This document shows positions 11,990 to 51,208 of a stretch of 64,000 nt of DNA, in pieces. Numbering within the stretch: the first letter of the stretch is position 1; the number at the start of each line of letters is the position of its first letter. Position numbers and translations under genes: made by a program. The notes beneath the pieces are model-generated. The model made no database searches and was not told the origin of the DNA. It saw nothing but the letters and a program-made list of their open reading frames with translations. This DNA is from Nemertoderma westbladi (lineage: Eukaryota; Animalia; Xenacoelomorpha), in contig JAUCBJ010008854.1 of the NCBI GenBank assembly GCA_032718475.1, forward strand, positions 1-64,000, written 5' to 3'.

Positions 11990-12663
11990 AACAGTAAAAG
12001 TGTCCGAGTCTGTACTCCCACATATTCCCATAGGCGATATCGCCTTTGCTGAAGTGAAGGCTGCTGCAAAGAGCATTAAGACCAATCGTGCCAGTGGAGT
12101 AGATGGTGTTCCCCCCGAGGTCTTTTAAATTCCTGAGTGTTTAAAGCTCATCATAGTAGGCATGTACAGAACAACGAGAGTCCCGCAAGAAATGAAAACA
12201 AATAAGTTGGTGCCAGTTCCCAAGAAGGGCAACCTAACACTCTATGGTTCTTTTCGGGCAATCTCATTGATCTCGATTGCTGCAAAGCTATACAATAGAA
12301 TTCTATTAAATCGCATCAGGGATCCCATTGAAAGACTGCTACGTGGAAATCAGAATGGGTTCCGTAAAGGTTAGTGGGACCAAGGACAACTAAGGTTATG
12401 GAGGACCTGTCTGTTTAACTTTATTGACTTCTTCAAGGCCTTTGATTCAGTCACTCGCTCACGTATGTTCAGCATACTTTCATTATATGGGATTCCTGAT
12501 GAAATTATTGCAGCAATCAGATCAGTATACGATGGTTCGACAACATTTGTGTCTACTGTTGACGGTGACAGAGAACCATTAGAAGTGTTATGGGGAGTCC
12601 TCCAGGGAGACACAGTTGCACCATTCTCATTCATAATTGTGGTTGACTATGTTCTACGCATGG
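11990..12663 (+). mobile_element. Degenerate RTE-type LINE RT region, 5' part, interrupted by the LTR element
   Basis: EVKAAAKSIKTNRASGVDGVPPEVF, PKKGNL...FRAISL, QNGFRKG, DFFKAFDSV, GVLQGDTVAP. Stops are present; the frame is cut at YVLRM by the LTR. Confidence 0.9.
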
Positions 12664-13865
12664 TGTAAAAGCTTTTGCTGAATTGCCCGGTTATTTTTCC
12701 TTATTTTTCCCGTAAAATACTCTGTAGTTGGTTTAATAGGCGTAAGAGGCCGTATTATTGCTGTATCGGTGTTTTTAGAGGATCTAAGAGCTATTTCTTC
12801 CGTATGTGTACTGTGGAAGGCATAGTTGATGATTCTATGGCAATTCCGTGACGCAAAAGGGGATAGCTACTCTTGAACAGTAGTTACTATGACGACGGTT
12901 AACAGATGATATTCATACGTGTCGATTTTCTTTGTTCTACGGCATCTCTCAGTTCAGTCAACCAATCAGAGCGTTTTTACTGTTCTTGTATAGAAATTTC
13001 CTAGAAATCACGCAATGCTGTATGGGCAGTGTTGACATTCTGTCCTGAGCCAGGAGAGAGCGGCTTTGGAATATTTTGTGCTTTTCTGCTTTAGCCTAAC
13101 ACTAGTAGGCTTAATTATAAGGGCATATATCCGTTATCACACTTAATATCTCACTGGTTATCACTGGTTAACTGGCCCATACTGTGCAACTTAACTTAAC
13201 AGTACTGCTCTGCTGTCGGTTATTCATTATATTTGTTGATGAATTATTATATTTGGAATAACGAGAAATAACCCCGAAACCCAATATTATTGATATACCG
13301 AAGGTAAGAGAGAAAGGTTACATATAACGATTGCGACTTATGTTAAAGTGGTTTGAAGTGAATCTAATGTTATTTGATAGACCCTACATGAGTCGGTCTG
13401 TGTTCCTTTTATATGTGACTAAAATCAGTGAAGATCGGCAGATTAGTGTGCAGTATTGTGCAGCATTGTGTATGAGTGAGACTGATAACGAAGCATTTCC
13501 TAAAGAATGCGCCATATATGTGAATTGTAACTAAGCCATATCGTTGTGAGTAGTTTAAGTCATAACTCTGTTTATATAGATAGAGCGCCACGTCCTAAAG
13601 GAACTGTTAATATTCCCCGAAGGTGAATAATATTGTCAGAGATTATATAATGCTGTCAGTCGAATAATACATTAGGCTTACATAGCAATACGATTAAGCC
13701 CTCGAAGTCAATCTCCCGGGTATATCCAACGGGTGAATGATCGCGCACAGATTGGTTTCAACTAGTGTAGTGAATCAAATACTTGTTAGAGGCTAAAGCG
13801 ATTTATTATCTAGAAGACATCCTAATTTGGCGGGTTAAACTGCCAAAGGTCTGAAAGCGCGAACA
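12664..13865 (+). repeat. 5' LTR (1202 bp)
   Basis: TGTAAAAGC...GCGCGAACA; about seven differences from the 3' LTR seen by eye. Confidence 0.97.
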
Positions 13866-14146
13866 ATAACGGATATAGCTTCTGTATTGCAGTAGGCAAT
13901 AAAGCTGAAGTACCGGCAACCGGTACCCAGTAGGCCTGACTACCTAACCACCCGGACCGGTACCTACAGCAGTACAGGTACAGCAGTATTATTCGATTTT
14001 GATAATTATATACCGGTAGGCCTTAATAATTAATCAGGGACTGCAGCCTTGGTTTTTTATTGAGATTTTTACTTATTTCTGTCAAGTTTTATTTGTTTGT
14101 AGGCCAGTATTGAACAGAAGGCGTGTAAGCCTGATCAGATTGTACA

Positions 14147-14720
14147 GACAATTTGTAGGCTGAGCTGTTGTCTGATTGCTGTTAAGTCTGAACGGATTGC
14201 AGTGTGTGTAGATCACCTGTCCGATAAAGAACGGTTAGGAAGTAGGGGCAGCCAAAGCTGTAAGGTAAACCCCCAACTAAAGAATAAGTCGTACTACTGG
14301 GTTAGAACGCATACTACCTAATCATTTCGGAGTCTGCATGTCCTGTAGTTTATTTAGGCTTGAGAGTAGTCTGCCATCGTTTAGTCTGTACTTTGTTTGT
14401 GTAGTCTGTACAGGTAGCGTATAATATTTATTTAGATAATTTGTAGGCTGGATAGTTGTCTGGCTGTTATTAGGTCTGAAGGATTGCAGTGTGTGTAGAT
14501 CACCTGTCCGATAAAGAACGGTTAGGAAGTAGGGGCAGCCAAAGCTGTAAGGTAAACCCCCATCTAAAGAATAAGTCGTACTACTGGGTTAGAACACATA
14601 CTACCTAATCATTTCGGAGTCTGCATGTCCTGTAGTTTATTTAGGCTTGATAGTAGTCTGTCAGTATTTGGTCTGCATTTTGTTTGAGTAGTTTGTACGC
14701 GTAGCGTAATATTTATTATT
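14147..14720 (+). repeat. ~290-bp tandem duplication in the LTR-element leader
   Basis: GGATTGCAGTGTGTGTAGATCACC...TTTATTTAGGCTTGA occurs twice (units start near 14147 and 14435). Confidence 0.85.
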
Positions 14721-16036
14721 CAGAGTTTATGCGATTATTCGCAACATTCATTCCCCAAGTTTGTTCCTACAATAATTGTGTTTGTTATACATACCGCTAT
14801 AGTTAAATTAACCCCGGTACTACACGGGCTGCTTGGCGTAGGTAAAGACTGGTGATTTTGTGCACCGGTCACTCCAGCAGATGCCGTGGTTCTTTTAGCT
14901 GTTCAAGTATATTTAACTACTGATTATCTGTTGTACAAGTACTCGTACCTAATTTAGGGTTTAGTGTACAGTGCTTTCCGAAAGTAATTAGTGTAGGCAT
15001 TATATTTGTGTTGTAAAGTGGTTGATAGGCACGTTCGATTAGCTCTATTAACTTCTAGGTAGGAACACTCCGTGATACATAACGTAGTACCTATAGCGAT
15101 ACGGCTATAGGTCGTCAGGCGGTGGTATTTTCCTATCTGGACAACGCAGTGTATTTACTACTACTTATTATTTTCAAATACCGTAGTACCCTGTCCGTTG
15201 TAATAACCAGATTTCTAACCCTTTGTTAGGCTGGTTTGTAGACTTCTTGTAAAATTACCCTGAAAATTCGTATTTTGTGTTTTTGTAAATTTTTGTGTTT
15301 ATTTAGAGATTGTAATCTCACCCGAATTGTACGTAATTTGTAGTATTAAGTAACTTAGGTAAATTAGAATTATTTGTTTTAGTGTCCTATAAGTAACACT
15401 TCACTGAAAGCGCACCGCTTTGTGTAGTGATTACTCCCCAGAAATAATAACATTTATTTCAAACATAGACAAAACCCATTAAAACGGGTATATATATATT
15501 ATAAATCAAATCTAACGATTTATAAATAGTAGGCCTACCATACAACCATTAGGTCTCAATATCAGTTGGATTACTGCTCAAATAATGGTAATAAAGTAAG
15601 TAAAGTAACCAAGTAACCCTAAAATTCAGAAATTCAATTATTTAAAATAATTGATATACCGGTATTTACGATAGGCCTATTATCTTTATTTCTATAAATT
15701 TAGGCTGAAATTATACCGGTACTTGTAATTAATTCTAGTCCAGAATTATATATACTACAAACTGTAAGCTGTATACCGGTATTCTCGATAGGCCTATTAT
15801 ATATTTATATATATTTGTGCTAAAATTATACCGGTATTCTGTGATAAACCTAGTCTGTAATAATACTTATATAGTTATATATGCTATAAGCATACCGGTA
15901 TCCTAATATATTATATATATCACGCTACACTGAGTAGCAGTATCGGTAATTAATTACTAGGCTAGCAGTTAATACTGAGTTACTAGACTTGCTCAGACTG
16001 TAATATAGCAGTAGGCATTCAACTGTACACATAAAC

Positions 16037-19000
16037 ATGTCTGATACTAAGCAGAACCTGTCGGACAGTTTATTAGATGTAACTATCTGCGACTCAGATA
16101 GAGGCGTAGAACCGTCTAGTCGTAAGTTCAGTTCACCTCCCACTGTGAGGAAGGTCATCCCTCCTGTAGTAATAACAGAACCTAGGCTGGTCCAACATCG
16201 TAGGTCTATCATAGGCACTCGAGCTCAGGTCAAGCGGGACCAAGAAGCAGCAGAACAGCAACCACCCGCGAGCCAAGAACTTATTTCTCAGCGGCCCGAC
16301 AGCTCCAGTAGTGAAGATACTGTAGAACTGACACCCGAGCGCGGAGCAAGGATGACGGATGCGGTTTATTCGGATCCCCTTCTCATCCTTCCTGCAGCCG
16401 TACTCACTAGGCTATTGATCGCGGTGGAAGAACACCAGATCGATTGGGCGAGAAGTAAGCGCTCAACTAAAGATAGTTATGCGGGATACACAAGGGAAGA
16501 ACTGAAGTCCATGGTCGAGTCGCAATGGAACTTCCCCGGACCCGGACTCCCGTTTGATTTATCAGAAGCTGCCTGGGAAGACATACACCGGATGGGAGTA
16601 GCCAAGGAAACCATCGATCCAGCTGTGTGGAAGAGGTCCGCAGCCGGATACGCACAGGGATTCTTCAGCTCTATGGAGCGAGTAGAAAAACAACTGTTAC
16701 AACAACCTCAAGGACCTCAAGAGCAGGGACAACTGCTTTATCAAGTTAGAGAAAGAATTCTGCGAATCAGGCTAATATTATCGGCCTTTGAGGAGGCTTC
16801 TAAACGAAGGCAAGACACGTCGTTGCAAGTTGCCGTAAAGACTTGGTTTCAACGGGTGAGTCGCCAGGTTCAAGGAACAGCTCAGTGGAAAGCTCAGCTG
16901 GAGGAGCTCTCAACCCATGGAGAATCAACAGACGCTACTTTTTCCCAAGTGGAAAGTGAAGCGACGGCAGAGAAGCCGCATAAGAGGGATGCCATTGACA
17001 TCTATCTGTCAGACTATCAACGTTTTTTAGGTGATGAAGAGTTGAGGAGAAGGTTAGATGGACTTAGCCCTAATAGTGAAGGAACTCAGCGTGTGTTGGA
17101 TGCCATCGATGTGGAAATGAGGGCTGCGAACCAGGCTAAATTTGATGAACAACTCCGCATCACAAGAGTCCAAGAAGAACAAGTAAAGAAAAAACGTATA
17201 GAAGACAGAAAGGCAGCGGCAGTAGCAGCAGCAGTGGCATCTGCAGAAGTAGAAAGAAAAGAGGCAGCGGCAGCGGCAGAGGCAAAAGCGGCAGAAGCAG
17301 AAAGAAAGGCGGCAATGGCAGCGGCCAAAGCGGAAAGAAAGGCGGCAGAGGCAGTGGCAGAAGCAGAACGGAAAGCGGCTGAAGAAACCACCCAATTAGA
17401 ATTGGAAAATATTCAGGAGAATCAAGACTGCATAAATAAACAGTTAACAGCTAGTAATATGCAGATGATGAATCGATCTACTCCCAAAAGACAGGGATAT
17501 ACATCATCTGAGGAAGGCGATACCACCGATACTGAAGGCAAAGGAAATAGATCTCGTCTAAGCAGACGTAGAAGAACATCCCACCGTCATAAATTGCCTG
17601 ATTTGCCTCCAGCTGTTAGAAGGCAACTAAATAACACCAACTTAGGTAGTACAGAACCCGTAGACCAGGTGGTTAAAATAGAAAGACTCCCTACTATAGT
17701 AGATGAGCCTGAAATAATTAGGCCTGTTCTTGAAATCACCCCTTCGGTGATAGACACACCTGTGCTCCCTGAAGTTACCTCTAAATTCCCTCTGCACAGC
17801 ACTAAGCTACCTGTGCCCAGTAGAACAGCCCATGAGACAGTTCAGGTCCTGGACCCCGAGCGAAATATTCATGATTTGTCGCCCGTTGTCCCTCGTCCGC
17901 CCGCTACAACGTTGGCGACTCCCGCTTCTGCGGTCGAATGGGTGGACGAGAGACGGCGGGGGATGGATCTCCTGCTCGGGCAGATGCAGGAGACTGTTCA
18001 GCAATTCAAGGGCACAGTAAGGGAAAGTAGGCTAGAGTTGCAAGAAGTGCAGCAAAGTATCGCGCTAGAACGCGATAAATTAGTAAATACACAAAGGGGT
18101 ATACCACCACCCTTGGTAACAATGTGTCAACCTGTTAGGTCTGAAGTATCTCATGCGCAAGGTGTGGAGCCTACACGCATATATACTGCTAGCGAAGTAG
18201 AAACTCCTATAGTGAACCCTATTAAGGGTAATTATAGACCTGTTGATAATGACATTCCCTATAGACCTGATCATAATCCGAGAAATTTATATACCGATAA
18301 CTCGATATTAAATAACACGATGGCCCAAGAAAGTTTTACGCGTCAAATGGCTAGAACCGAAGCCCGGCAAGCGGTGAAGGTGGGAGAGATCGTCAAGTTC
18401 AATGGAGATGAGATGAAATGGTTACCTTTTAATGAATATTACAAAGATAACATACAGAACTCTGTACTATCTAATGGAGAGAAACTTAGATTCCTCATCG
18501 AGTGCTTGGAAGGATCTCCCAAGTTAATGGCGTTAAAGTTTATTGGACATCCAGACGGATTAAGACAAGTTTGGGATACACTAAACATCAGCTATGGTAA
18601 TAGGAATAACATAGCTGGGTATTTGTATGCAAAGTTGGTAGCGCCCCGAAAGTTTATTAGCAACGGGATTATAGAGTTTTCCGATGAAATTCAGGAGATC
18701 TGCAGACAATTAGATTGGCTAGGTAAGTCTCATGAGTATCAGAGTGCTATGGTTATTAGAGCAGTGGCCTCTACTTTACCGAAGGGTGGAGTAGGTACAC
18801 GCTGGGACAAGAAAGTGTTATACATGATGGAACAACAACAACGAGACCCTACCATGACTGATCTCATGACATTCTTGGATGGCGAAGTGAAATTACAGCT
18901 CATAAAGCAGTCCAGAGAGAAGACATCGGAAAACAAGGTAAGTGAGAAACCCGTCTCCAGAAGAAAGGTAACACCAGTGTGTTATACCGACGACGGCGAA

Positions 19001-22000
19001 AGCCAAGCTTCCCAAGAGGAGGACAGCGGGAAAGACACTGAAAGATCTTATTATGTCAATAAAACACCTAACGAACAGGGAAGTAAATTTAAGTCTCGAT
19101 CCAATGACAAGAGAGAACAGGTAAGAAAAACTCCTCCTACGTCTCCCAAGAGAATTCAGGTGAGAAAGCCCGAAGAAAGAACGAGAGTGCACCATGTTAC
19201 CCAAAATAAGGTAAGTAACATCAAACCGAAATGTGCGCTATGTGACGGGACCCACCGTTTGAATATGTGTGATGAATTCCTGAAGAAATCATTAACGGAG
19301 AGACGAGAAGTCATGTGGGATAAGCGGTTATGTTATAATTGCCTCAGACAAGGACACCAACGGCGAACCTGTTACTCAGACATAAGGTGTGCAAAGTGTG
19401 GTGCGAAACATCATATCTTGTTGCACGCTGAATTCGATCGAAATAGTCCGAATCAGGTAAGTGATTCCGAACTACATGTCCAATTCAGTGATGTGAACGA
19501 CACTGATCAATCTGAGATGGAAGGATTCTATACGGACGAGTTCTCCGACGAAAACAAATCCTGTTACATGATAAATACCGCAGTGTATCGAGCACTCACA
19601 TATGAAAAAGATACAGACAGCGACCTCACTCTAACTACTTCTGATCGACAACCATCTTGGAAAGAGCCATCTTCCAATGTAGGGATCCGAGAGTTTCCTG
19701 TGGTGCAAGTAAGGGTTCACGGACCTAAAAGGAGTTATGTAGTGAACGCCCTCCTTGACTCCGGTAGTACAGGAACATTCATCGACAAAGAGCTAGCCGA
19801 AGACATATTTGCTGGACAACCCAAGTTCCGAACTAAGCTAAACATGTCAGGCATTATGCAAGTTTGGAAATCTACAGTAACAGCTGATTATTATGTAGGC
19901 GCGTTGTCCACCCCACAGGACGAACTAGGAGAACATAGCATAAGGTCAGTGAAAATGGTGGCTATAAAGAACTTCGCTACTACTCAAGCAGACCTTTATA
20001 ATTGGGACGAGGATGAGAGCATCCAACATCTTAAGATACCTCGATTCCAGACTGATTATCCTGGAGTGCAAATACTCATCGGCCAAAACGCGCATGAGGC
20101 GCTGGAGACATTAGAGAAACGGCCTGCTCAACCACAGCCACTACAGACCTATGCGGTAAGAACTAGAGTAGGTTGGTACTTTACTGGCCCTTCCCGTAGA
20201 ACACTCAGAGAAAGACTACCGCAAGAGCTCGTCTGCCAGGTGAGTGAATGGGAAGATGATACTAGTGAGGGAGACGATTTAACTGAGGGAACTCCATACT
20301 CCTCAGATAACGACGACATTCACCAGCTTTTTGATGAGGAGAATACCATCGATCTCCTTAAGGAAAACGAGGCTTGGCAAAACCAAGTGAACTTATGTCA
20401 ACTTCTTTATCCATCTGAACGAGAAGCTTATAACGACGAGTTAAATGACGTCATTGAGCGTTGTAATGCCAAGACTCGAGATGAACATGCCGTACGATTC
20501 TTTACGCAAGAGGCGGTAGAGCCCAATTCCTACGATAAAGCCTTATCGGTGGAAGAGGAAAGGGCCAAGCAGATCCAAGAGACAACTACACGTTTCCTCA
20601 AAGATCAAGGTAGGTATGAAGTCGGTCTACCTTTCCGCAAGAGAGAACCGAAGTTCATCAATAACAGACCCTTGGCGGAAAAAAGAATCGCGCAACTCCA
20701 TCGACGCCTTACGGCCAATTCTTCAGCCAAAGAAATGTATCAAACACAGCTGAAGAAATTTATTAGTAAGGGATACGCGGAGAGAGTACCGGAAGAAACA
20801 CCTGTGACTGAAAGAACGTATTACTTAACTCACCATTACGTTCCTAAACCCGGTAAGCCACATGAAGTGAGAGTAGTGTTTGATGGCTCCGCTCTTTACA
20901 TGGGTCAATCCCTTAACTCTGAATTGTTACCCGGACCCAACTTACTTCAATCTTTGTTGGGAATTCTTTTAAGATTGAGACAATATTCGATTGCTTTCGC
21001 CTCCGATATAGAAGGCATGTTCTTACAAGTCAAGGTGTTAGATAGGGATCGAGATAGTCTACGATTTCTGTGGTGGCCCGAAGGAGACCTCAACCAGAAA
21101 CCGGTGGAGTACTGGATGACCATCCAGGCCTTTGGGATAATCTCAAGCCCTTCCAACGCCTGTTCGGTAGTGCGTACCACTGCAGAGGACAACCGAGAGG
21201 CCTTCTCTAAGGAAGTGATCGACAACATCAAGCGGGACATATACATGGATGATAATCTGAAGTCTCTCCCATCAGTTGAAGAAGCCATCGAGGTCGCTAA
21301 AGGAACGGTAGAGTGCTTAAAAAGAGGTGGGTTTCGATTAACGAAATTCACCAGCAACTCCCGTGAGTTTCTGGAGTCGATCCCTGCGGAAGATCGAGGG
21401 GCGAAAGATCTAGATTTGATCAAAGATGATCTGCCAGAAACCAAGACACTCGGCTTGAAATGGGACACAGAGCGAGATATCCTGTTTTTCCAGCTAAAAC
21501 AGCGAGATAATCCAGTTCGAACCAAACGGATTTGCTTAAGTATACTGAGCACTTATTTCGATCCATTGGGATTTATTAGCCCAGTTATATTGATTGCTCG
21601 TAGTTTGGTACAACAAATGTGGCTTGAAAACCACTCATGGGACGATCCACTTAAGGGAGAATTATTAAAGAAGTGGATGAAATGGGAAGATTCTCTGCCG
21701 GCTATCGAGGATTTTATAATTTCCCGTTCATATTTTGGTCATGTTCTCCCTACGTATTCCTATCAACTCCATGTGTTTGGAGACGCCAGCGATATGGGAA
21801 TAGGTATAGTAGCCTATCTAAGAGTGGAAACTCCGGATGGAATCAAAGTCGCCTTGGTTACTTCTAAGGCATTAATCAACAACAAGTTGAAAGTTCCTCG
21901 AGCGGAGTTAAAAGCGGCTCTATACGCTACAGCCATCGGCCGGAATGTAACAGAACAGATTGACTATCCATTAGAGAAAACTGTCTATTGGACCGACGCT

Positions 22001-22603
22001 TTACTCGTGTTAGAGTATATAACCAATGAAGTCTGTCAGTTCAGCGTCTTCGTTACCAACAGAGTAGCCATCATACTTAGTCGCACGACGATGGACCAAT
22101 GGAGACATTGCCCCGGAACGATTAATCCAGCAGACATCGCTTCCCGAGGAGCGACTCCAAAGGAATTGGTAAATACTCCCGAATGGTTAGGTGGACCCGA
22201 CTTTCTCTACCAAGAAGAAGAAGAATGGCCTCCCCATCTCACAACAGCAGAGATCAGACAGGCCAAGGGAGTGGAGAAAGTTAAACCCAAAACTCGAGCG
22301 AGTAAATCGAAGTTGTTTAAACCTGCGGTTGATCTATCTGTATTATTTACTTCCGGAGAGGATGCTTTGGATCAGAAACCCACCGCCACGACTAAAGAAG
22401 TCTTGGAAATCCGTGACAAGGATTGGAAATCTGGAATACCAGATATCGCGCAAGGACTCTCACCCCTCTTGCAGAGAGCGATACGTCACTACAGCTCCTG
22501 GAATCGGCTCTGTAAAGCCGTCACCTATTTAAAACGATGTTTTCATCATCGTTACTCCGGGACAAAGACCAATAGTGATGATGCTCCATCAACGTCTGCA
22601 TGA
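16037..22603 (+). CDS. BEL/Pao Gag-Pol polyprotein (Gag, zinc knuckles, aspartic protease, RT, RNase H), 2188 aa
   Basis: KFNGDEMKWLPF Gag motif; CALC..H...C, CYNC...H....C, CAKC...HHILLH; LLDSGS; RVVFDGS, DIEGMFLQV, YMDD; FDPLGF; LHVFGDAS...PRAELKAA...WTDA...NPADIASRG. Confidence 0.95.
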   Translation: MSDTKQNLSDSLLDVTICDSDRGVEPSSRKFSSPPTVRKVIPPVVITEPRLVQHRRSIIGTRAQVKRDQEAAEQQPPASQELISQRPDSSSSEDTVELTPERGARMTDAVYSDPLLILPAAVLTRLLIAVEEHQIDWARSKRSTKDSYAGYTREELKSMVESQWNFPGPGLPFDLSEAAWEDIHRMGVAKETIDPAVWKRSAAGYAQGFFSSMERVEKQLLQQPQGPQEQGQLLYQVRERILRIRLILSAFEEASKRRQDTSLQVAVKTWFQRVSRQVQGTAQWKAQLEELSTHGESTDATFSQVESEATAEKPHKRDAIDIYLSDYQRFLGDEELRRRLDGLSPNSEGTQRVLDAIDVEMRAANQAKFDEQLRITRVQEEQVKKKRIEDRKAAAVAAAVASAEVERKEAAAAAEAKAAEAERKAAMAAAKAERKAAEAVAEAERKAAEETTQLELENIQENQDCINKQLTASNMQMMNRSTPKRQGYTSSEEGDTTDTEGKGNRSRLSRRRRTSHRHKLPDLPPAVRRQLNNTNLGSTEPVDQVVKIERLPTIVDEPEIIRPVLEITPSVIDTPVLPEVTSKFPLHSTKLPVPSRTAHETVQVLDPERNIHDLSPVVPRPPATTLATPASAVEWVDERRRGMDLLLGQMQETVQQFKGTVRESRLELQEVQQSIALERDKLVNTQRGIPPPLVTMCQPVRSEVSHAQGVEPTRIYTASEVETPIVNPIKGNYRPVDNDIPYRPDHNPRNLYTDNSILNNTMAQESFTRQMARTEARQAVKVGEIVKFNGDEMKWLPFNEYYKDNIQNSVLSNGEKLRFLIECLEGSPKLMALKFIGHPDGLRQVWDTLNISYGNRNNIAGYLYAKLVAPRKFISNGIIEFSDEIQEICRQLDWLGKSHEYQSAMVIRAVASTLPKGGVGTRWDKKVLYMMEQQQRDPTMTDLMTFLDGEVKLQLIKQSREKTSENKVSEKPVSRRKVTPVCYTDDGESQASQEEDSGKDTERSYYVNKTPNEQGSKFKSRSNDKREQVRKTPPTSPKRIQVRKPEERTRVHHVTQNKVSNIKPKCALCDGTHRLNMCDEFLKKSLTERREVMWDKRLCYNCLRQGHQRRTCYSDIRCAKCGAKHHILLHAEFDRNSPNQVSDSELHVQFSDVNDTDQSEMEGFYTDEFSDENKSCYMINTAVYRALTYEKDTDSDLTLTTSDRQPSWKEPSSNVGIREFPVVQVRVHGPKRSYVVNALLDSGSTGTFIDKELAEDIFAGQPKFRTKLNMSGIMQVWKSTVTADYYVGALSTPQDELGEHSIRSVKMVAIKNFATTQADLYNWDEDESIQHLKIPRFQTDYPGVQILIGQNAHEALETLEKRPAQPQPLQTYAVRTRVGWYFTGPSRRTLRERLPQELVCQVSEWEDDTSEGDDLTEGTPYSSDNDDIHQLFDEENTIDLLKENEAWQNQVNLCQLLYPSEREAYNDELNDVIERCNAKTRDEHAVRFFTQEAVEPNSYDKALSVEEERAKQIQETTTRFLKDQGRYEVGLPFRKREPKFINNRPLAEKRIAQLHRRLTANSSAKEMYQTQLKKFISKGYAERVPEETPVTERTYYLTHHYVPKPGKPHEVRVVFDGSALYMGQSLNSELLPGPNLLQSLLGILLRLRQYSIAFASDIEGMFLQVKVLDRDRDSLRFLWWPEGDLNQKPVEYWMTIQAFGIISSPSNACSVVRTTAEDNREAFSKEVIDNIKRDIYMDDNLKSLPSVEEAIEVAKGTVECLKRGGFRLTKFTSNSREFLESIPAEDRGAKDLDLIKDDLPETKTLGLKWDTERDILFFQLKQRDNPVRTKRICLSILSTYFDPLGFISPVILIARSLVQQMWLENHSWDDPLKGELLKKWMKWEDSLPAIEDFIISRSYFGHVLPTYSYQLHVFGDASDMGIGIVAYLRVETPDGIKVALVTSKALINNKLKVPRAELKAALYATAIGRNVTEQIDYPLEKTVYWTDALLVLEYITNEVCQFSVFVTNRVAIILSRTTMDQWRHCPGTINPADIASRGATPKELVNTPEWLGGPDFLYQEEEEWPPHLTTAEIRQAKGVEKVKPKTRASKSKLFKPAVDLSVLFTSGEDALDQKPTATTKEVLEIRDKDWKSGIPDIAQGLSPLLQRAIRHYSSWNRLCKAVTYLKRCFHHRYSGTKTNSDDAPSTSA

Positions 22604-24127
22604 GTCCATGTTGTTAAAGATCTTCCCAAATACAAGATATCCGACAGGTTTCTAAAGGAGAAGATCAGTTACCAGGAGCATGATGAAACCAACAAACAGA
22701 TGCTAAGACTCCTACAATGCTATGAGGATTCCGATAAGTATTTCCTGTTGTTAAGAAATCCGCAGATGCGCTTAAGGGATCGCTTCTCTAGTACCATGAT
22801 AGATGGATTAATACGTGTTGGAGGTAGGCTTACCAACGCCCCATTATCCTTTGACACTAAATTTCCCATACTCATTAGAAATCTTGACATACAAATCAAG
22901 ATGATTGTAGATGTTCATAGCAAACTGTATCATGCTGGAAGAGAACGAGTTCTGAGCGAAATTCGAACTCGCTTCTATTTTTATAAACCCCGTAGGGCTC
23001 TGAACCAAGTCCTTAGGAACTGCATACCCTGTAGGAAAGCATTCAGTAGGCCTTTGACACAGCGAGAGGCAGAATTACCTAGGGAAAGAGTAAGCTTCTA
23101 CGAACCACCCTTTACTAATACCGGTGTGGATTTATTTGGCCCTATTGAAGTATATCGTGCCCGGACTATAGTCAAGAGATGGTGTGTCATCTTCGTTTGT
23201 ATGACTTGTAGAGCTATCCATCTCGATATGGTAAACGATCTATCCACCAACAGCTTCGTGTTGAGTCTACGACGACAGATCGCTCGTTTCGGAACCAGTA
23301 ACACGATGAGATCGGATAAGGGAACGAACTTCATTGGCGCCAACAACGAAATTCAAGCTTACGTAAAGGACTGGAACAAGAGACAGGTGGACGATCAGCT
23401 AAAGATAACAGCGTCTAGCTGGACCTTCAACGCCGCCGACGCCCCTTGGTGGGGAGGAAGTTGGGAGAGATTGATTAGGAGCGTGAAGACTGCGTTCCAC
23501 TTTATTGTACCTTGTCGCGTTTATCTCACCGACGATCTATTGCGGACGTTAATGGAGGAAATTGCCGCTTATCTCAACGAGAGACCGCTTATGCCAGTCT
23601 CATCGAGTCCCGATTCCCTGGAAGCGCTAACACCCGCGCACTTCCTACTGAAGAAACCTGTAGCCATGCTCCCACAATCGGAAATCACAGACGGAGACGA
23701 ATACTGCCGACAAACTTGGCAACTCATGCAGTTGTTATCCCGTCGTTTCGCTGACCATTTCGAAAAACATTATCTGCCCACGCTACAACTTCGAACTAAG
23801 TGGTTTGCGCAGCAAGAAAACGTCAGCGCTGGAGACATGGTGCTTATTGTGGACCCCGATCTCCCACGTAAGCGATGGCAAACAGGTCGTATCATCGAGA
23901 CTCATATCTCGAGCGATGGTTTGGAACGATCAGTAGAACTCGTCGTCATGCGGCGTAACTTTAAGAAACCAGGGATAGTCTTTGAGACTCAACAGCTCAA
24001 CCGCCCAGTGGGTCGTTTATGTTTACTGGAAAGAGACAGAGAGCTCTCCGGAAACTATGGAAGGCAAGAAACTCTTCCCACGACCACTTCCCTAATTCAA
24101 CCGACATCTAGGGGCTCCCCAACTTAA
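22604..24127 (+). CDS. BEL/Pao integrase region, same frame as Gag-Pol, after a single in-frame TGA
   Basis: GLIRVGGRL; HSKLYH...CIPC zinc finger; GVDLFGP; SDKGTNF; GGSWERLIRSVK. The frame is open from 22604. Confidence 0.92.
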   Translation, partial: VHVVKDLPKYKISDRFLKEKISYQEHDETNKQMLRLLQCYEDSDKYFLLLRNPQMRLRDRFSSTMIDGLIRVGGRLTNAPLSFDTKFPILIRNLDIQIKMIVDVHSKLYHAGRERVLSEIRTRFYFYKPRRALNQVLRNCIPCRKAFSRPLTQREAELPRERVSFYEPPFTNTGVDLFGPIEVYRARTIVKRWCVIFVCMTCRAIHLDMVNDLSTNSFVLSLRRQIARFGTSNTMRSDKGTNFIGANNEIQAYVKDWNKRQVDDQLKITASSWTFNAADAPWWGGSWERLIRSVKTAFHFIVPCRVYLTDDLLRTLMEEIAAYLNERPLMPVSSSPDSLEALTPAHFLLKKPVAMLPQSEITDGDEYCRQTWQLMQLLSRRFADHFEKHYLPTLQLRTKWFAQQENVSAGDMVLIVDPDLPRKRWQTGRIIETHISSDGLERSVELVVMRRNFKKPGIVFETQQLNRPVGRLCLLERDRELSGNYGRQETLPTTTSLIQPTSRGSPT

Positions 24128-27100
24128 TATCGTTCGGAGTGGGCGTGTGACTCTATTATTTTATATTATTTTATTATTTTTATATTTATGTATGTATTAC
24201 TACGTAATTTTATTATAATCGTTTTATTTAATTTAGTAGAATCTTATTTAGCGATTATTTAGTAGAATAGTGCAATATATTCGTGTTTATTGCGTACGTA
24301 ATTACGTATATATTATATTTAGTGCGACGGCAAGAAATAATTCTTTTCCTTCTTCCTTACTGTCCGTATTACATTACAAATACGTAACTACAGTAAGATG
24401 AAATGTCCGTACTTATTAAAGTACAATAAAGCCACTACTATATTCAAGTATTATTGGTAGGCAGAGTATTAGGAATGCAAAGTTCAGATCCTCGTGTCTC
24501 GGCTAAACCAAGCTCTGGGTAGACCTTGGAAACGACTTGCCTCTTCACACTGACATTGCTTCGTGCGATATTGCTCTCATACCGTATATTAAATAATACA
24601 TATAGTAGCGTGATGTCCCTTTAACAGTAGCGTATAAAGCAAAATAAATCTGTTAAACCCTTTGACCATCTGTAATTCTAGTCGATTAAGATATCGCGGC
24701 ACCCACCGATATACTTGAAAGACAAATTTTAGAATCAGTGGTTAACGTCCCCAGACAAGTTCTGGAATAAATCGGTGCCCATCTCAAATATTAATTATTT
24801 AATATTTGCAAATCTAATAAATCAACTCTGTAAAATTCAGATCCTTCAACAATTCTAGTCAATTAAGATATCGTAGCATTTACCGATATTCTTAAAAAGG
24901 ACAATTTTCATAGAATTAAGGATCTTGTGTCCCCAGACATGTTCTAGAATCAAAATATGTCAATTTAATTATCAAATAATAAAATTTCAGGGAATAAATT
25001 TAAATTCATGCCTTTTAATGAATTTAATAAATTGCCATTTTTACGCAATTTATAACATTCCCAAAATTCCATTAATTAATAGATCAAGGGAGCGGAGATT
25101 TATCTTATTATGCGTATGAGTGTGCGAAAGTCTCCCAAACATAGTCAATAGCCGATAAAATTCATAAAGTCATGTATAAAACAGGCCATTGACCATTAAA
25201 GAATTACTATTAAATAACATCCCAGATCTGTATGCATTGGAATTACCCTAATTCTACCGCTAGCTTTGCATAATGTCACCATAGCAACAACCACGCTAGA
25301 ATTAGAATTGAGTTAAAAGAATAATAGACAGCTTGTCCCATTGAATAACATAGGGAATCAACAGTGCACTGCTAGTATCCAAGGATACATAATAATAACG
25401 TGACATTCTGGAAGGCACTGACTAACGGACAAGTGACCCGAGTGTGGGTAATTTGTGACAAGTTGTGTGTGTGGTATTTGTGAGTTTATAGGCGAATGTT
25501 ACTACTAAGGTGTGTTTACAGTAGCGAGTCGCAATTGTGAAAGTAACCCTAACTCTCCAGTAAGAACCTGAGGTGTATCTAAGCCTTTGGGACGGACAGT
25601 CGAGTGACTTGTGCCGGTTGTCGTTGTCGTTGTGCGGCTACGTCGTTGGCGAAAGTACAGCGGCGACGACACATCGGTGCTGAGGATCTCGCACTGTCCG
25701 GGGGCTGATTGGGGTAGGCAGCGACGCTCGCTAGCCTAAATATAAACTCATTATAATATTAATAAACTCATATATAGCAGATATGACGGAGTTGATAGAA
25801 GATGGTCTTGGTATCAGGGAGCGATATACTCTACTTTCAAGCGTTTGTTGATAGCTTGATACGCGGTGATACTAGTCCAACTACTACGAAGGATGATGGT
25901 CGTTATATCGAACCTACGATTTCCTGGAAGTAACTTACGCGTGAATTGGGCTATGGAAAATTCACCGCTCGCTACATGCATTGTAATGGTATGTATATGG
26001 ACTTCTTAACCATTGGCCATTCTATCGATTTACACGATACGGGCTATGTCGAACATATCCTACCCAGAGGAGTCGAAACGATAAACCAAAATTCTAATGC
26101 GAAAATCCTATTCGAAATCGACTCGAAAGAAAAGACATTAAAGAAACAAATAAACGCGGTAACTCCAACATATATTTGGAATTCTTGATAGAAGCATTGT
26201 AACAACAAATAAATATCACCCGCGTTTTCCCTTCAAGACGTGCGTCTTTGGTATTATTGCGATAAATGCCCTAGACCCAGCCAATAAACGGAAAGACATA
26301 AACATCCACGGAAACGTTGTGTTAAACACAGTTGTGCTCGTTATATTTACTGGAGTTTCGAGCGAAACTTGTTTGACGTATCACCTATGCTCACTCGGCT
26401 CGAACGATCCTGGAGTAAACCTACGATCAGAGTCCCGGAATACTCGGTCAAACCTCCTCATTCCTTAGTTGGACCTCAGACCTGCGATCCTGGTGGTGTC
26501 GCGGATCCTCGCGGACTGTATTCACTGTTCAAAGATCTAGTGCTACCCTAACAATTAATCGGTAACACTCCGACAGTGATTTCTAGCTAGCCGCCCATCT
26601 TACCTAGCCGGATTGTGACGCGGACACCTAATATCACTATCCAACCGTATGGTCGTCCCCATTTAACGCGATACAACCCTTCATCAAGGTGAAGGAGAGC
26701 GTTGTACGAAACGAGTTAAACGCTATTCTATAAAGATCAAAAAAGAAATCTGCGTTTGTTCAGATAAACGTAAGTTATAACAGTAAGTCCAATCGATAAA
26801 CGAATTAGCCTTATCTCAGTTCGATTGGGAAATCTCGAATCTCTAAGAAGATATCAAGCTTAGAAAACCCTATTCTCTGCGAGAGTTTTGGACGAACGTA
26901 TCCCATGACAAGCGGAGGAAAATCAGCTCGAGGAGAAGCATATCGAACTGGACGAGACACCGACCGTAAACCCAAACCTTCTAATGCAATTGTATTGCAT
27001 CCTTTACCCAGGAGTTATAGCCTTCCTAGTAAAGTGGCTCGCCCCAAAGAGAAAAGGACTCTGGCTAGCCTCGGGAAACTGCGTAAACGCCGTCCGCGCA

Positions 27101-27189
27101 AAGAAAACTAACTGTTTAGAGTATCTTTATGTTTTAGAAACTGTGATTTTTATATTTTATAGACTGAAAATCCCATTTTCTGGGAGCGG

Positions 27190-28390
27190 TGTAAAAGCTT
27201 TTGCTGAATTGCCCGGTTATTTTTCCTTATTTTTCCCGTAAAATACTCTGTAGTTGGTTTAATAGGCGTAAGAGGCCGTATTATTGCTGTATCGGTGTTT
27301 TTAGAGGATCTAAGAGCTATTTCTTCCGTATGTGTACTGTGGAAGGCATAGTTGATGATTCTATGGCAATTCCGTGACGCAAAAGGGGATAGCTACTCTT
27401 GAACAGTAGTTACTATGACGACGGTTAACAGCTGATATTCATACGTGTCGATTTTCTTTGTTCTACGGCATCTCTCAGTTCAGTCAACCAATCAGAGCGT
27501 TTTTACTGTTCTTGTATAGAAATTTCCTAGAAATCACGCAATGCTGTATGGGCAGTGTTGACATTCTGTCCTGAGCCAGGAGAGAGCGGCTTTGGAATAT
27601 TTTGTGCTTTTCTGCTTTAGCCTAACACTAGTAGGCTTAATTATAAGGACATATATCCGTTATCACACTTAATATCTCACTGGTTATCACTGGTTAACTG
27701 GCCCATACTGTGCAACTTAACTTAACATTACTGCTTTGCTGTCGGTTATTCATTATATTTGTTGATGAATTATTATATTTGGAATAACGAGAAATAACCC
27801 CGAAACCCAATATTCTTGATATACCGAAGGTAAGAGAGAAAGGTTACATATAACGATTGCGACTTATGTTAAAGTGGTTTGAAGTGAATCTAATGTTATT
27901 TGATAGACCCTACAGAGTCGGTCTGTGTTCCTTTTATATGTGACTAAAATCAGTGAAGATCGGCAGATTAGTGTGCAGTATTGTGCAGCATTGTGTATGA
28001 GTGAGACTGATAACGAAGCATTTCCTAAAGAATGTGCCATATATGTGAATTGTAACTAAGCCATATCGTTGTGAGTAGTTTAAGTCATAACTCTGTTTAT
28101 ATAGATAGAGCGCCACGTCCTAAAGGAACTGTTAATATTCCCCGAAGGTGAATAATATTGTCAGAGATTATATAATGCTGTCAGTCGAATAATACATTAG
28201 GCTTACATAGCAATACGATTAAGCCCTCGAAGTCAATCTCCCGGGTATATCCAACGGGTGAATGATCGCGCACAGATTGGTTTCAACTAGTGTAGTGAAT
28301 CAAATACTTGTTAGAGGCTAAAGCGATTTATTATCTAGAAGACATCCTAATTTGGCGGGTTAAACTGCCAAAGGTCTGAAAGCGCGAACA
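27190..28390 (+). repeat. 3' LTR (1201 bp)
   Basis: Near-identical direct repeat of 12664-13865, followed by TSD CATGG. Confidence 0.97.
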
Positions 28391-28950
28391 CATGGCCTTA
28401 GATCGTCATAATGATGATGGGTGATGGTAACTCCACCTACTGGCTCCAGAAGTCGAGGAAAGGCACATTAAAAAAAATGCTACGTCGGGTTCACAGTGTC
28501 AGGTACACTGCATTGGAGTCCCTATACAGCATTGAAGGAGTCTTAATATGCCCCCCAAGTGTGACACTCGAACAGAAGCGCATCTGCTCTGCTTTCGCAG
28601 TAATGACCAGTCTGTGAATGATGACTTGGTTCTTGGGTGGCTTTATGGAGATAATAATTAAAGACACTATATAACATTGGAGGTGTCTCATTGGTTCCCC
28701 AAAGCTTGACGGTAGAACAAAGCCGCCTCCGCTATACGGGACATTGTTTTCGCAGGGAGGACCAACCTGTGCACAATCTTGTGCTTTGGCAGCCCCATGG
28801 AGAAAATAAGCATGGTGGCAGCATGACTTTCGTGAGATGCCTCCTAAAGGACACTGGCCTTGAAGGTGCGGATAATCTCGCGAAAGTCATGGGAGATAGG
28901 GAGTTGTGGAGGTGCAATTTTGTTGATATGCCGGCATATCATTCTTATTG
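28391..28950 (+). mobile_element. Continuation (3' part, internally deleted) of the RTE LINE split by the LTR element
   Basis: Resumes MALDRHNDDG..TPPTGSRSRG, collinear with the 58-kb copy, and ends RLRYTGHCFRRED...GDRELWR. Confidence 0.85.
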
Positions 28951-29574
28951 CACGCTGCATTGGACTTGCCAATTGTGGATTGCATGGTGGTGACAAAATG
29001 TTTTTGGTATGCTGGTATAGAATCTAATGTGCAATTTCAATGCTGCAGGCCGATTATAGTAATAGTATTTAGTACAATTAATGTCAGCGGATATTTTTTA
29101 CGTAATAACATTGTGATTGATTTAAGGTGTAATTTATTTAGTTGAAAAACCACAATAGTATTCGGTAATTATTTAAATTTATTTTAATAATATATATGAA
29201 TAACCTTTCACGGCACGCACCTGTTTCTGCTAACTGCTACAATACAACGGATATTGTTTTGATTATAATTAGCAGAGCAGAGGATTAAGTACTTCACAAT
29301 AATTAATAATTGCACAAGGAATTCTTAAATATGATTTTATACTCCATAACGAAAAACACGATGAGAAGAGTTCATATAAGTTTATTAAGTACCTTTTCAA
29401 CCCGGGTAACTTTTTTAAAATATATTTTATATTTATATTATAAACGTTTACAAATAATTTCATTAACTCATTATTCTACAAACAGAAAATATGAAGTGGC
29501 GATAGAACAATTAAATTCAGCACATAAAGAAATTGCAGGGTGGTGTCGGTATTTGGGCGAGTTACTGGCTGGCA

Positions 29575-32335
29575 GTAGTCACGAGTTACTACTGCTGGTA
29601 GTCACGAGTTACTACTGCTGGTAGTCACGAGATAGTACTGCTGGTAGTCACGAGTTACTACTGCTGGTAGTCACGAGTTACTACTGCTGGTAGTCACGAG
29701 TTACTACTTCTGGTAGTCATGAGTTACTACTGCTGGTAGTCACGAGTTACTACTCCTGGTAGTCACGAGTGCTGGTAGTCACGAGTTACTACTGCTGGTA
29801 AACACGAGTTACTACTGTTGGAAGTCACGAGTTACTACTGCTGGTAGTCACGAGTGCTGGTAGTCACGAGTTACTACTGCTGGTAGTCACGAGTTACTAC
29901 TGCTGGTAGACACGAGTTACTACTGCAGGTAGACACGAGTTACTACTGCAGGTAGACACGAGTTACCACTGCTGGTAGTCACGAGTTACTACTGCTGGTA
30001 GTCACGAGTTTCTACTGCTGGTAGACACGAGTTACTACTGCAGGTAGACACGAGTTACTACTGTTGGTAGTCACGAGTTACTACTGCTTGTAGTCACGCG
30101 GTACTAGTGTTGGTAGTCACGAGTTACTACTGCTTGTAGTCACGAGTTACTACTGCTAGTAGTCACGAGTTACTACTGGTGGTAGACACGAGTTACTACT
30201 GTTGGTAGTCACGAGTTACTACTGCTTGTAGTCACGAGTTACTACTGGTGGAAGACACGAGTTACTACTGCTTGTAGTCACGCGTTACTACTGTTGGTAG
30301 TCACGAATTTCTACTGCTTGTAGTCACGAGTTACTACTGGTGGGAGACACGAGGTACTACTGTTGGTAGACGCGAGTCACTACTGCTGGTAGTCACGAGT
30401 TACTACTGCTGGTAGTCACGAGTTACTACTGCTGGTAGTCACGAGTTACTACTGCTGGTAGTCACGAGTTACAACTGCTGGTAGTCACGAGTTACTTTTG
30501 CTGGTAGTCACGAGTTACTACTGCTGGTAGTCACGAGTTACTACTGCTGGTAGTCACGAGTTACTACTGCTAGTAGACGTGAGTTACTACTGCTGGTAGA
30601 CACGAGTTACTACTGCTTGTAGTCACGAGTTACTACTGCTGGTGGTGAAGAGTTACTACTGGTGGTAGTCACGAGTTACTACTGCTGGTAGTCACGAGTT
30701 ACTACTGGTGGTAGTCACGAGTTACTACTGCTTGTAGTCACGAGTTACTACTGCTGGTAGTCACGAGTTACTACTGTTGGTAGTCACGAGTTACTACTGG
30801 TGGTAGTCACGAGTTACTAATGCTGGTAGTCACGAGTTACTATTGTTGGTAGACACGTGTTACTACTGCTGGTAGACACGAGTTACTACTGGTGGTAGTC
30901 ACGAGTTACTACTGCTGGTAGTCACGAGTTACTACTGCTGGTAGTCACGAGTTACTACTGGTGGTAGTCACGAGTTACTAATGCTGGTAGTCACGAGTTA
31001 CTACTGCTGGTAGACACGAGTTACTACTGCTGGTAGACACGAGTTACTATTGCTGGTAGTCACGAGTTACTACTGGTGGTAGTCACGAGTTACTAATGCT
31101 GGTAGTCACGAGTTACTACTGCTGGTAGACACGTGTTACTACTGCTGGTAGTCACAAGTTACTACTGGTGGTAGTCAAGAGTTACTACTGCTTGTAGTCA
31201 CGAGTTACTACTGCTGGTAGTCACGAGTTACTACTGCTGGTAGTCACGAGTTACTACTGGTGGTAGTCACGAGTTACTAATGCTGGTAGTCACGAGTTAC
31301 TACTGCTGGTAGACACGTGTTACTACTGCTGGTAGACACGAGTTACTACTGGTGGTAGTCACGAGTTACTACTGTTGGTAGTCACGAGTTACTACTGCTG
31401 GTAGTCACGAGTCACTACTGGTGGTAGTCACGAGTTACTAATGCTGGTAGTCACGAGTTACTACTGCTGGTAGACACGAGTTACTACTGCTGGTAGACAC
31501 GAGTTACTATTGCTGGTAGTCACGAGTTACTATTGCTGGTAGTCACGAGTTACTACTGCTGGTAGACACGAGTTACTACTGCTGGTAATCACGAGTTACT
31601 ACTGCTGGTAGTTACGAGTTACTACTGCTGGTAGTCACGAGTTACTACTGCTTGTAGTCACGCGTTACTACTGTTGGTAGTCACGAGTTACTACTGCTTG
31701 TAGTCACGAATGACTACTGCTGGTAGTCACGAGTTACTACTACTGGTAGACACGAGTTACTACTGCTTGTAGTCACTAGTTATTACTGCTGGAAGTCACG
31801 AGTTACTGCTCTAGTAGTCAAGAGTTACTATTGCTGGTAGTCACGAGTTACTAGTGCTGGTAGTCACGAGTTACTACTGCTGGTAGTCACGAGTTACTAC
31901 TGCTTGTAGTCACGAGTTACTACTGGTGGTAGTCACGAGTTACTACTGCTTGTAGTCACGCGTTACTACTGTTGGTAGTCACGAGTTACTACTGCTTGTA
32001 GTCACGCGTTACTACTGTTGGTAGTCACGAGTTACTACTGCTTGTAGTGACGAGTTACTACTGCTTGTAGTCACGAGTTATTACTGCTGGAAGTCACGAG
32101 TTACTGCTCTAGTAGTCAAGAGTTACTATTGCTGGTAGTCACGAGTTCCGATTGCTGGTAGTCACGAGTTACTAGTGCTGGTAGTCACGAGTTACTAGTG
32201 CTGGTAGTCACGAGTTACTGCTCTAGTAGTCAAGAGTTACTATTGCTGGTAGTCACGAGTTCCGATTGCTGGTAGTCACGAGTTACTAGTGCTGGTAGTC
32301 ACGAGTTACTACTGCTGGTAGTAACGAGTTACTGC
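29575..32335. repeat. 23-bp minisatellite ACGAGTTACTACTGCTGGTAGTC, ~120 copies
   Basis: Direct reading; the array abuts the NAP1 stop codon. Confidence 0.97.
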
Positions 32336-34256
32336 TGTCTGCATTCCGGTGGATTTTCGCCTTTAACCTCGTTTTTCCCGGGCTTGTAATCGGGATCATC
32401 TTCATCTTCGTCCTCACCTTCGTACTCATCACCCTCGTCCTCCTCTTCCTCAATATCCTCATCAACCTGGGCTTCCCCGGTGAAGTAGAACACGGCCTGT
32501 AAAGAATCAGATTAACATTATTAACTAGGCCAATATTTGTAATATAATCTCACCAACATATTGGTGTTGCGTAATTACATTACATACAAACAAGCAAGCA
32601 AACAGTCGGCCGAGGCCTGAGGCGATAGCTGCTACCCGAAGGTGGGGGTGGGCGCAACTCATAACTCATTTTCAGGTCCCAGTAATTCAACTGGTCGTTA
32701 TATTATCGACCCCACTATTAACTTGTTTATAAACGAAGCTACGATTTAAGACTAGCATGTTAGGCTAATTACTAATTAGATATTATTAATATCTTTAACA
32801 TCCAAAGATTGGGAAAATATGCATTTTAAGTGCGAAGGGAAGGGAAGTTTATTTACAAGAAGTAGAATTCGAAAATCACGATATACAGTAAATAACAAAT
32901 GGCGAACAACTAACTTTTCTTTTTCAAGTCAGATCTGCATAAACGTAAGACTAAATGGATGAATTTAAACAATAGATTAGGCAGTAGGCAGTAGGAGGGT
33001 TTACCTTGGGGAGAATCCTGTCCCGGAACAGAATCGCGATATCGAAATCGGCCTCCATCATCTGTTCGAGTTCGGGGCCCTCGTCACCGCCGTCCCCCCG
33101 GGGCCCCTCGAAGAAGTTAAAGAAACTGCAGTTGGGTACTGTCTTGGATACAGTCCTCGTCTGCCCTTGCGATTTGTGTTTCTGCTTCTTCTTTATGGTC
33201 TTTACCGTCACGTTCTTCCCTTTCTTCCAATCGATTTTACAACCGATTAGACTCTTTATCTGCGCGCCCTCGTAATTAATAACGTCCTCCAATGTGTCGG
33301 ACGGCCCGTATTCCATAAGGTAGAGTTTGCTAAGGACAGTGTTGTTAAAGAACTCGTTGGGAGAGAAATGGAAGTCTAGAGAGAAGTTAGGAGAGACGTG
33401 TCCGGGACAATCCAATCGCACTCGAATGTCTACGAGGTTCTTCAGAATGGGTTCATCGTGTTCCAAGATGAGTTCCGCTACCATTTCAATGCTCTTTAAG
33501 GTTGTCAACCAGAACTCCGGGATGCCAACCTCGGCGTCTCTCTTCTCCTCCGTCTCCTCCCCAACAACCTCCGGCCATTCGCTCAACTCCCACTTGGATT
33601 CCTCCTCGGATGGTTCCACCGCCCCGGTGATAAACCCTCGTCGTTTCTCGTAGATTTCGTCGAACTTTGCCTGGAATCTCTTCTCTAACTCGTGGACTTC
33701 CTTGTAGAAATCCGCCTCAACTGTCACCTGTCGAAAGGAATGAATATGCAATGCAGATAGGCCTACGCAGATAGGGATAACAAGAAAAAAAGATAACTAA
33801 AGTTTACATTAAAGTCATTAAACAAATATTAATGCATGAAATATCGTAGACATGGGCTTAACGAATGACATTATGATAGTGATACTTATTATTATTAAAC
33901 ATAGGCCCTAATGCATAAAGCGCCATATATCGGTATACGGTTCAGTTGACATGCTTATGTTAGGTTAGGCCTACCTGTTTGTGACACAGACATCTCAGAG
34001 CATCAACTCGTCTCTTTACTTCCGTCGGTAGACTCTCAATGTATCCGCTACTCTGGCCAACCAGAGCGTCCAGTTTCCCTTGGATCGCGGCCAGAGCTTG
34101 AGGAGATTTCAGGAGGTCCGGTATCACGGTCGACTTCTCGCCGGGGCCCTTCGCCGGAGAGGGTTCTGAACTTGCCGCGTCGCCGGATTCCGTCGGTACG
34201 TCTTCTTCGCACTGGTTTGGTGCGTCGATTAAGGGTTCACCGTCGTTAGCTGACAT
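32329..34256 (-). CDS. NAP1: Nucleosome assembly protein 1-like, 3 exons (34256-33975, 33727-33005, 32496-32329), 390 aa
   Basis: YIESLPTEVKRRV, GIPEFWLT, DEPILK.L.DI, F.PNEFF.N.VL.K.Y, GCKIDWKKGKNVT..KKKQKHK, SFFNFF, LPK|AVFYFTGEA, acidic tail, terminal CRQQ CaaX-like motif. Both introns are GT-AG and phase 0. Confidence 0.95.
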
Positions 34257-50300: not shown

Positions 50301-51208
50301 TACTCCAAACTAAAATGTGATAACCGATATCAGAAAAGAATATCTTGGGTAATAGAGGCTCCTTCTAGTTGTGCTATCAAGAGCAATATTGCCGTATGGG
50401 AATATATAGGAGAATTCCCAGGCCTTTCCGTGCATGGAAATTCCTCTATAACTTCCAATAATTATGTGAGGACAACAGAAAACGCATGGGATGCAATGGA
50501 TAAAATAATACCTCTTGCTGCACCTAAGAAAGTGTATTCCGAACTAAGTAAAGGGGAACCAACCGATAAGTTTCCAAGAAACACAAAACAAATAAGAAAC
50601 CGTAAGTACCGATACTTAGAAAGGCAACAACAAGAAGGTTCTACTGATGTTATTCATAGAAGCAACTTTTCTGATCAATTGCAAATTATTTCGTCTATGG
50701 TGCAAGATCATCCGTTTGTGCAACATGTACTGCATTCTAAGAATGAAGTGCCAACAGTGGTACTCTTTACTGATGATCAAATGCGTGATGTTAATAATTA
50801 CTGTTGCACTGGTCGATGTGTCCTGGCGTTCGATAAGACATACAATTTGGGGGATTTGTATGTAACACCTTCAACATTTAAATGTATGTCTGTCATAAAC
50901 ACAGATAGCTTATTTATGGTGTTGTTGAAGTTATGTACCGCGACTTTCAACGTGCGTTATTAGGCCAGGGAAATTATTCCCTCTCAAAAGAAGCTAAACG
51001 GCTAGCCATTTCCCCGGAACAATGGTCCGAGTTGAACGAAGAACAAAGACGAAAGGCCATAGAAAAACTTGCCAGTTTCAAATCTCTGCGAAGGCACCAC
51101 CTTGTAGATTCAACCGATGGGAGACTAAAAACAATGTTTAAAAAGACAGGCCGAAAACCGGGACAAGGCCGACGAAAGAAAACTCGCTCAATGAAATCTA
51201 CGAAATAG
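47350..51208 (+). pseudogene. Spliced PHD finger + vertnin-like OTU + MULE-type transposase gene, frameshifted and internally deleted
   Basis: Exons 47350-47393, 48364-48551 and 48990 onward join in frame (FPCQ|ICGNEC...IECDRCKLWTHTVC...FLCKDC, C4HC3). OTU-like GDGNCLYRAVS...VNHF; YEDDCGAW; VLAFDKTYNLGDLYVT; frame change at A-run 50242-50250; C-terminal RALLGQGNYSL. Start exon not identified. Confidence 0.8.
47580..48245 (+). mobile_element. Degenerate CRE-like (RLE) non-LTR fragment within an intron of the MULE gene
   Basis: RADLLARGVW...ASFDIAV..ADALSY...KK..Y and TDGVW...HLAETL...VRRRLQFALLRSNSLCLR, RLE endonuclease motifs with a frameshift. Confidence 0.7.

Follow-up and report, generated by a model that had tools for sequence, protein, structure and literature searches.

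The LTR of the BEL/Pao retrotransposon analysed in this study pairs with the bases directly behind it, in a defined register relative to the LTR end, and this pairing covaries across distant families of related elements. Based on these sequence comparisons, the element, which occupies positions 12664–28390 (15.7 kb) of Nemertoderma westbladi contig JAUCBJ010008854.1, probably uses a fragment from the 5′ part of its own RNA, and not a host tRNA, as the primer for minus-strand synthesis. The window referred to below is the whole stretch of DNA that was analysed, i.e. the 64,000 nucleotides at positions 1 to 64,000 of the forward strand of this contig, and all features of the element lie on the plus strand.

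Self-comparison of the window delimited a 5′ LTR of 1202 bp (12664–13865) and a 3′ LTR of 1201 bp (27190–28390), both of the TG...CA type and 99.4% alike, differing by six substitutions and one indel. The element interrupts a LINE copy (12016–12663 and 28391–28461) and is flanked by a 5-bp target-site duplication (CATGG) at 12659–12663 on the left and 28391–28395 on the right. Since the two flanks join up where this LINE is present without the element (58128–58456), the LTR ends are fixed independently of the feature under test; the LINE copy at 57596–58897, on the minus strand, has an RT frame. The insertion is young, and the family is many-copy and variable, as judged from four sequencing runs, all of which consist of contigs. 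None of the 40 listed family differences, out of a total of 237, falls in either of the 12-mers discussed below, although this count derives from contigs only and is uninformative on the constancy of the 12-mer, while contig depth is uneven across the LTR and is likewise uninformative on the transcript start.

By its proteins the element is a member of BEL/Pao, as Pfam analysis identified DUF1759, Peptidase_A17 (E 8e-36), Integrase_H2C2 and DUF5641, which constitute the BEL/Pao set and are equally present in its homologues. The domain order of gag, protease, RT, RNase H and integrase with Pao-type domains, and the combination of TG...CA LTR ends with a short target duplication, are those by which BEL/Pao elements are recognised. 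A single frame of 2199 codons from stop to stop (16004–22603) encodes gag, protease, RT and RNase H, as deduced from DUF1759, three Cys-His motifs, LLDSGS, YMDD and Peptidase_A17, and is followed by an integrase frame (22604–24127), recognised by its Pfam domains (Integrase_H2C2 and DUF5641) and motifs, which lies behind the stop codon of the upstream frame; this stop codon (22601–22603) interrupts pol between RNase H and integrase. The 2.1-kb leader contains a tandem duplication of approximately 288 bp, the copies of which are 91% alike (14146–14717), while a purine-rich tract precedes the 3′ LTR (27182–27189). The integrase and this tract are separated by a 3-kb stretch (24127–27189) with several short plus-strand frames of 80–101 codons (e.g. 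25934–26185), which is possibly a decayed or spliced extra gene and to which the 15.7-kb length of the element is attributed. In two protein searches and among the fetched loci no relative of the RT-RNase H region exceeded 45–47% identity, and references for the named lineages (Bel, Pao, Tas, Suzu, Sinbad, Dan and Flow) were absent among the protein-search hits.

Elsewhere in the window, an uninterrupted frame of 893 codons (59756–62437) situated in a GC-rich patch (59%) combines beta-propeller, kinase and Ribonuc_2-5A domains in the layout of IRE1; a single-exon IRE1 would be unusual. At 48790–50963, a frame of 487 codons that contains an OTU protease domain precedes one of 240 codons with no Pfam match, and this region is perhaps part of another mobile element. 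A tandem array of a 23-bp unit extends over approximately 2.9 kb (29424–32341), and the two arms of a 1.6-kb inverted repeat (44187–45774 and 53291–54879) display 98% identity.

Concerning the primer-site position, an earlier note on this DNA had described a 12-mer directly behind the 5′ LTR (13866–13877) whose exact reverse complement is present inside the LTR (13126–13137), together with the lack of a TGG-type tRNA primer site, and both observations were confirmed. The reverse complement occurs in the whole window only at 13126–13137 and at the equivalent position of the 3′ LTR (27652–27663), no TGG is present in the 60 nt behind the 5′ LTR, and the pairing begins at offset 0 from the LTR end and comprises 12/12 bases. 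When the LTR was dinucleotide-shuffled 20,000 times, a match of at least 12 bases arose in 7 cases (p about 4e-4), or in 9 when offsets of 0–5 were allowed, while 0 of the 13,270 other internal positions of the element match the LTR over 12 bases. The chance of approximately 7e-5 that had been calculated under uniform base use thus proved too low, the shuffle rate being about five times that value, although a rate higher than the uniform one was expected in the same note under AT bias.

The 12-bp duplex forms in the folds of four RNAs with different ends, with a pair probability of about 0.9–1.0 in its core, and in the fold of 13126–13950 the per-pair probability ranges from 0.74 to 1.0. The hairpin that had been noted near the LTR end (13826–13847) is present, with a pairing probability of 0.68. 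As regards the TATA-like motif at 13116–13120, TATAA is indeed found, but it does not extend to the consensus, and no TATAWAW is present upstream of the 12-mer in the window LTR; nor does this LTR contain AATAAA or ATTAAA. The distance from the end of the partner to the end of the LTR is 728 nt in the window element as opposed to 44–203 nt in its relatives, and this distance, like the missing TATAWAW and poly(A) signals, counts against self-priming in the window element. Neither a search of the window for tRNA genes nor one of 12500–28600 for Rfam families gave a hit, so that no element-encoded tRNA-like primer was found.

Relatives were collected using a profile of the RT-RNase H region, which retrieved 96 loci, 80 from metagenomes and 16 from genome bins, while two scans of viral contigs found no relatives. 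The latter 16 loci (L081–L096) represent contigs of bacterial genome bins that carry BEL/Pao retrotransposons, and these contigs are most likely animal host DNA. A long-range direct repeat was present in 41 of the 96 loci, from which 18 loci with both LTR ends readable and a further nine with the LTR start alone fixed were chosen by eye. The remaining 14 repeat-bearing loci, including L095, L020, L044 and L083, were excluded; for ten of these, naive ends gave contiguous matches of 5–7 bases, their repeats being contig-end overlaps or belonging to another element, while L095, the sister of L007, has suffered damage in its 3′ LTR but exhibits the same junction in its 5′ LTR. At 80% RT identity the 27 selected relatives collapse to 22 families.

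Pairing was scored, as in the available text of PMC6317226, where at least 10 complementary bases begin 0–5 nt behind the LTR. A TGG-type site is present in two of the 18 relatives with readable ends (L052 and L079) and absent from the other 16, and in four of these 16 (L048, L059, L063 and L075) the LTR contains a contiguous complement of 10–12 bases. In the other non-TGG relatives the complement starts immediately behind a pyrimidine tract followed by AG, for which reason an intron was suspected, and a blind search of all GT and AG positions selected consensus-like donors and lengthened the pairing to 10–13 bases. Under a strict intron model (donor GTRAG, and acceptor YAG behind a pyrimidine-rich stretch), a match of at least 10 bases (10–13) to the element's own LTR was obtained for 13 of the 16 non-TGG relatives and for the window element, and for 15 of the 16 when any GT donor was permitted. 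Swapped site-LTR pairs reached 10 bases in only 6 of 342 cases under the strict model, four of these six falling between related elements (L003/L005 and L050/L056), and in 11 of 342 cases with any GT. For the flanks behind the 3′ LTRs (n = 18) the best match was 6 (strict) or 7 (any GT) bases, and both TGG-type elements displayed a match of just 4. In L088, 11 of 12 positions are paired across the predicted intron, the single mismatch causing it to be scored as a miss. No split partner could be identified in the window LTR, where strict donors gave a best match of 0, and any GT combined with pyrimidine-rich acceptors a best match of 5; an 11-base split match was dropped on the basis of its non-consensus donor and of an acceptor that is not preceded by a pyrimidine tract.

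Among the nine loci for which the LTR end had to be searched, eight pair over 10–15 bases across a predicted intron, as compared to 2 of 72 swaps, while L037 showed no match to its own LTR; the donor list for these nine loci was widened by two patterns after inspection of L039 and L066, and GTRAG is the donor in seven of the eight matches. The 22 families therefore comprise 18 positive ones (14 split and four contiguous), L088, L037 and the two TGG-type elements, and in the 14 split families a partner is obtained from the LTR only if a predicted GT-AG intron is taken out. The letters of the primer site vary between families while the pairing is maintained, as illustrated by L081 and L082 (90% RT identity), between which three changes before the donor are mirrored at the three matching primer-site positions, and the pairing terminates 0–5 nt from the LTR end in all positive cases. 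Covarying complementarity between LTR and primer site in related BEL families, which the earlier note had proposed as a check, was thereby found, and with different letters.

In phylogenetic terms, the window element is situated on a long branch outside a well-supported 18-row clade that contains most of the positive relatives, in an 8-row set that it shares with the TGG-type group and two elements of the split type, while contiguous-partner forms are scattered at several places on the tree. Since the window element is only distantly related to the others (RT identity of 47% or less), the relatives support it by analogy only, and it may constitute a separate origin of self-pairing.

In the proposed mechanism, transcription would start within the 5′ LTR, either at 13126 or further upstream. 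The stretch 13126–13137, the predicted 3′ end of the self-primer, would anneal with 13866–13877. The RNA would then be cut directly 3′ of 13137, presumably by the RNase H of the element, a step that is borrowed from Tf1, where it is established, and which would yield a 3′-OH paired to the first base behind the LTR. From here the RT would copy 13865 back to 13138, and the product would be transferred to the identical stretch at the RNA 3′ end. In most relatives the partner would be assembled by splicing the predicted intron out of the 5′ LTR, and the window element would represent an intron-less form. With its position on the primer side of the cut, the intron would reach the progeny through the unspliced 3′ LTR copy, while splicing of that 3′ copy would give rise to intron-less progeny, which would explain the occurrence of contiguous forms at several places on the tree. 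In 14 of 16 relatives the partner is followed, at a distance of 0–97 nt, by a poly(A) signal (AATAAA or ATTAAA), and a cut behind the partner would consequently leave a repeat for strand transfer.

The split forms possess just 3–7 paired bases upstream of the donor, from which we infer that the upstream exon is longer than its paired part, and a TATA box is located 130–240 nt upstream of the partner or donor in three relatives (L075, L081 and L082). Taken together, these observations suggest a longer 5′ fragment as the probable primer, and the transcript probably does not have to begin with the partner. The proposal of tRNA-independent priming that was put forward in the earlier note is thus strengthened by the covarying pairing in related families, but the accompanying requirement for a transcript 5′ end near 13126 is not supported in view of the mostly split partners and the upstream TATA boxes of the relatives, and the spacing of the TATA-like motif at 13116 is decisive neither way. 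On a wider scale, a substantial share of the marine BEL/Pao elements may have abandoned tRNA priming in favour of a primer derived from their own 5′ exon(s), the halves of which would be joined by the spliceosome, a proposition that we hold with evenly divided confidence; only the spliced 5′ copy would pair and be cut, the unspliced 3′ copy would pass the intron on, and elements of the window type would be intron-less or of separate origin.

Other explanations of the pairing were weighed against self-priming by a 5′ fragment. It is unlikely that a host RNA (a tRNA half or another small RNA) primes at this position and that the pairing, though real and selected, instead has a role in packaging, dimer formation or the control of translation. 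The primer sites of two relatives may resemble the T-loop motif of tRNAs, which was counted in favour of this explanation. Half-tRNA primers furthermore exist in Ty1/copia, according to the available text of PMC6317226, but the free variation of the primer-site letters between families is not compatible with a fixed host RNA, and both the position of the pairing, which in all positive families ends within 0–5 nt of the LTR end, and the two elements with TGG sites but no pairing argue against it. Slightly less probable is priming by the 3′ end of the genomic RNA, whereby the transcript would end at 27663, fold back and prime at 13866. This would fit the presence of the same 12-mer in the 3′ LTR, where it is followed by CA, a common cleavage dinucleotide, and the lack of a canonical poly(A) signal further down in the window LTR. 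In the 14 of 16 relatives with a poly(A) signal downstream of the partner, however, the RNA would extend past the partner, while split partners would necessitate a spliced 3′ copy, by which the intron would be lost from all progeny, and the poly(A) tail would have to be missing or removed.

We consider it very improbable that the 12-base match of the window element is due to chance, or is a one-off product of template switching, with the tRNA site having simply decayed. Although the element belongs to a distant lineage, and blind scans with no fixed LTR end do yield chance contiguous matches of 12–13 bases (L087), the LTR end is in this instance fixed by the target duplication and the empty site, and the shuffles give a p of about 4e-4. 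Moreover, the 12-mer is present in both LTRs of a young insertion and has therefore gone through replication, and an equivalent arrangement is found in 18 families. The explanation that we favour, and consider likely, is self-priming by a fragment from the 5′ part of the transcript.

According to the available portions of 10.1101/2022.12.06.519325, PMC4600332 and PMC5341516, self-priming is established in Tf1, and Tj1 and the Tf1/sushi group are proposed to use it as well; those of PMC6317226 predict it for Tcn1 and the TAR lineage of Ty1/copia. Tf1, Tf2, Tj1 and the Tf1/sushi group, which are Ty3/gypsy chromoviruses, are described in these portions as likewise having no tRNA site and an LTR stretch complementary to the bases behind the 5′ LTR. 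The window element, in contrast, belongs to another superfamily, and a Pfam search found no chromodomain in it, whereas the Tf1/sushi group is recognised by a chromovirus pol with a chromodomain. Judged by its sequence, the element resembles Tf1 in that the primer site finds its partner in the element's own LTR, and is no member of the Tf1/sushi group. Flanking duplexes resembling those of Tf1 can be drawn between 13674–13696 and the 20 bases behind the primer site (13878–13897), and between 13739–13753 and the LTR end (13848–13864); the former is marginal (14 of 300 shuffles being as stable) and the latter not significant (43 of 300). With such stems reaching p<0.05 in two of 16 relatives on the downstream side and in 0 of 16 on the upstream side, the pretzel structure was dropped as a common feature. 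For the TAR lineage (Houba and Osr-1) and Tcn1, the prediction of self-priming is based on a pairing of at least 10 bases starting 0–5 nt behind the LTR, as applied here, but these are plant copia or gypsy elements, and a split partner is unmentioned in the available text (PMC6317226). With the Belpaoviridae, for which the ICTV profile gives an 18-nt primer site for host tRNA-Arg or tRNA-Gly and a genome of 4.2–10 kb (PMC8742986), the window element has in common the LTRs, the domain order and the Pao-type RNase H and integrase domains, while it differs from the profile in its length of 15.7 kb and in having no TGG site in the 60 nt behind the 5′ LTR. A primer site for a tRNA 3′ end is a descriptive trait of the Belpaoviridae and not the basis of the grouping, and in this trait the element departs from the described members.

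No report of self-priming in BEL/Pao, or of a primer built by splicing, was encountered in the literature searched; subscription journals, Repbase entries, figures and supplements lie outside this scope and may hold an earlier mention. The available portions of PMC8220671, PMC5443660, PMC3601003 and PMC6934838 contain nothing on BEL/Pao self-priming, and a term search of those of PMC554778 and PMC3118150 returned no passage on primer sites and nothing on BEL/Pao self-priming. The reference description of BEL/Pao is one of priming by host tRNA, from which self-priming would depart. If self-priming holds, it would have arisen in all three superfamilies of LTR retrotransposons, and it would explain why primer sites are missing from the tRNA-based annotation of many marine elements. 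The split form, if true, would link reverse transcription with splicing in the host, and such a point of control is undescribed for retroelements in the literature searched. The finding also bears on the question, discussed in the available portion of PMC3601003, of which came first, self-priming or tRNA priming.
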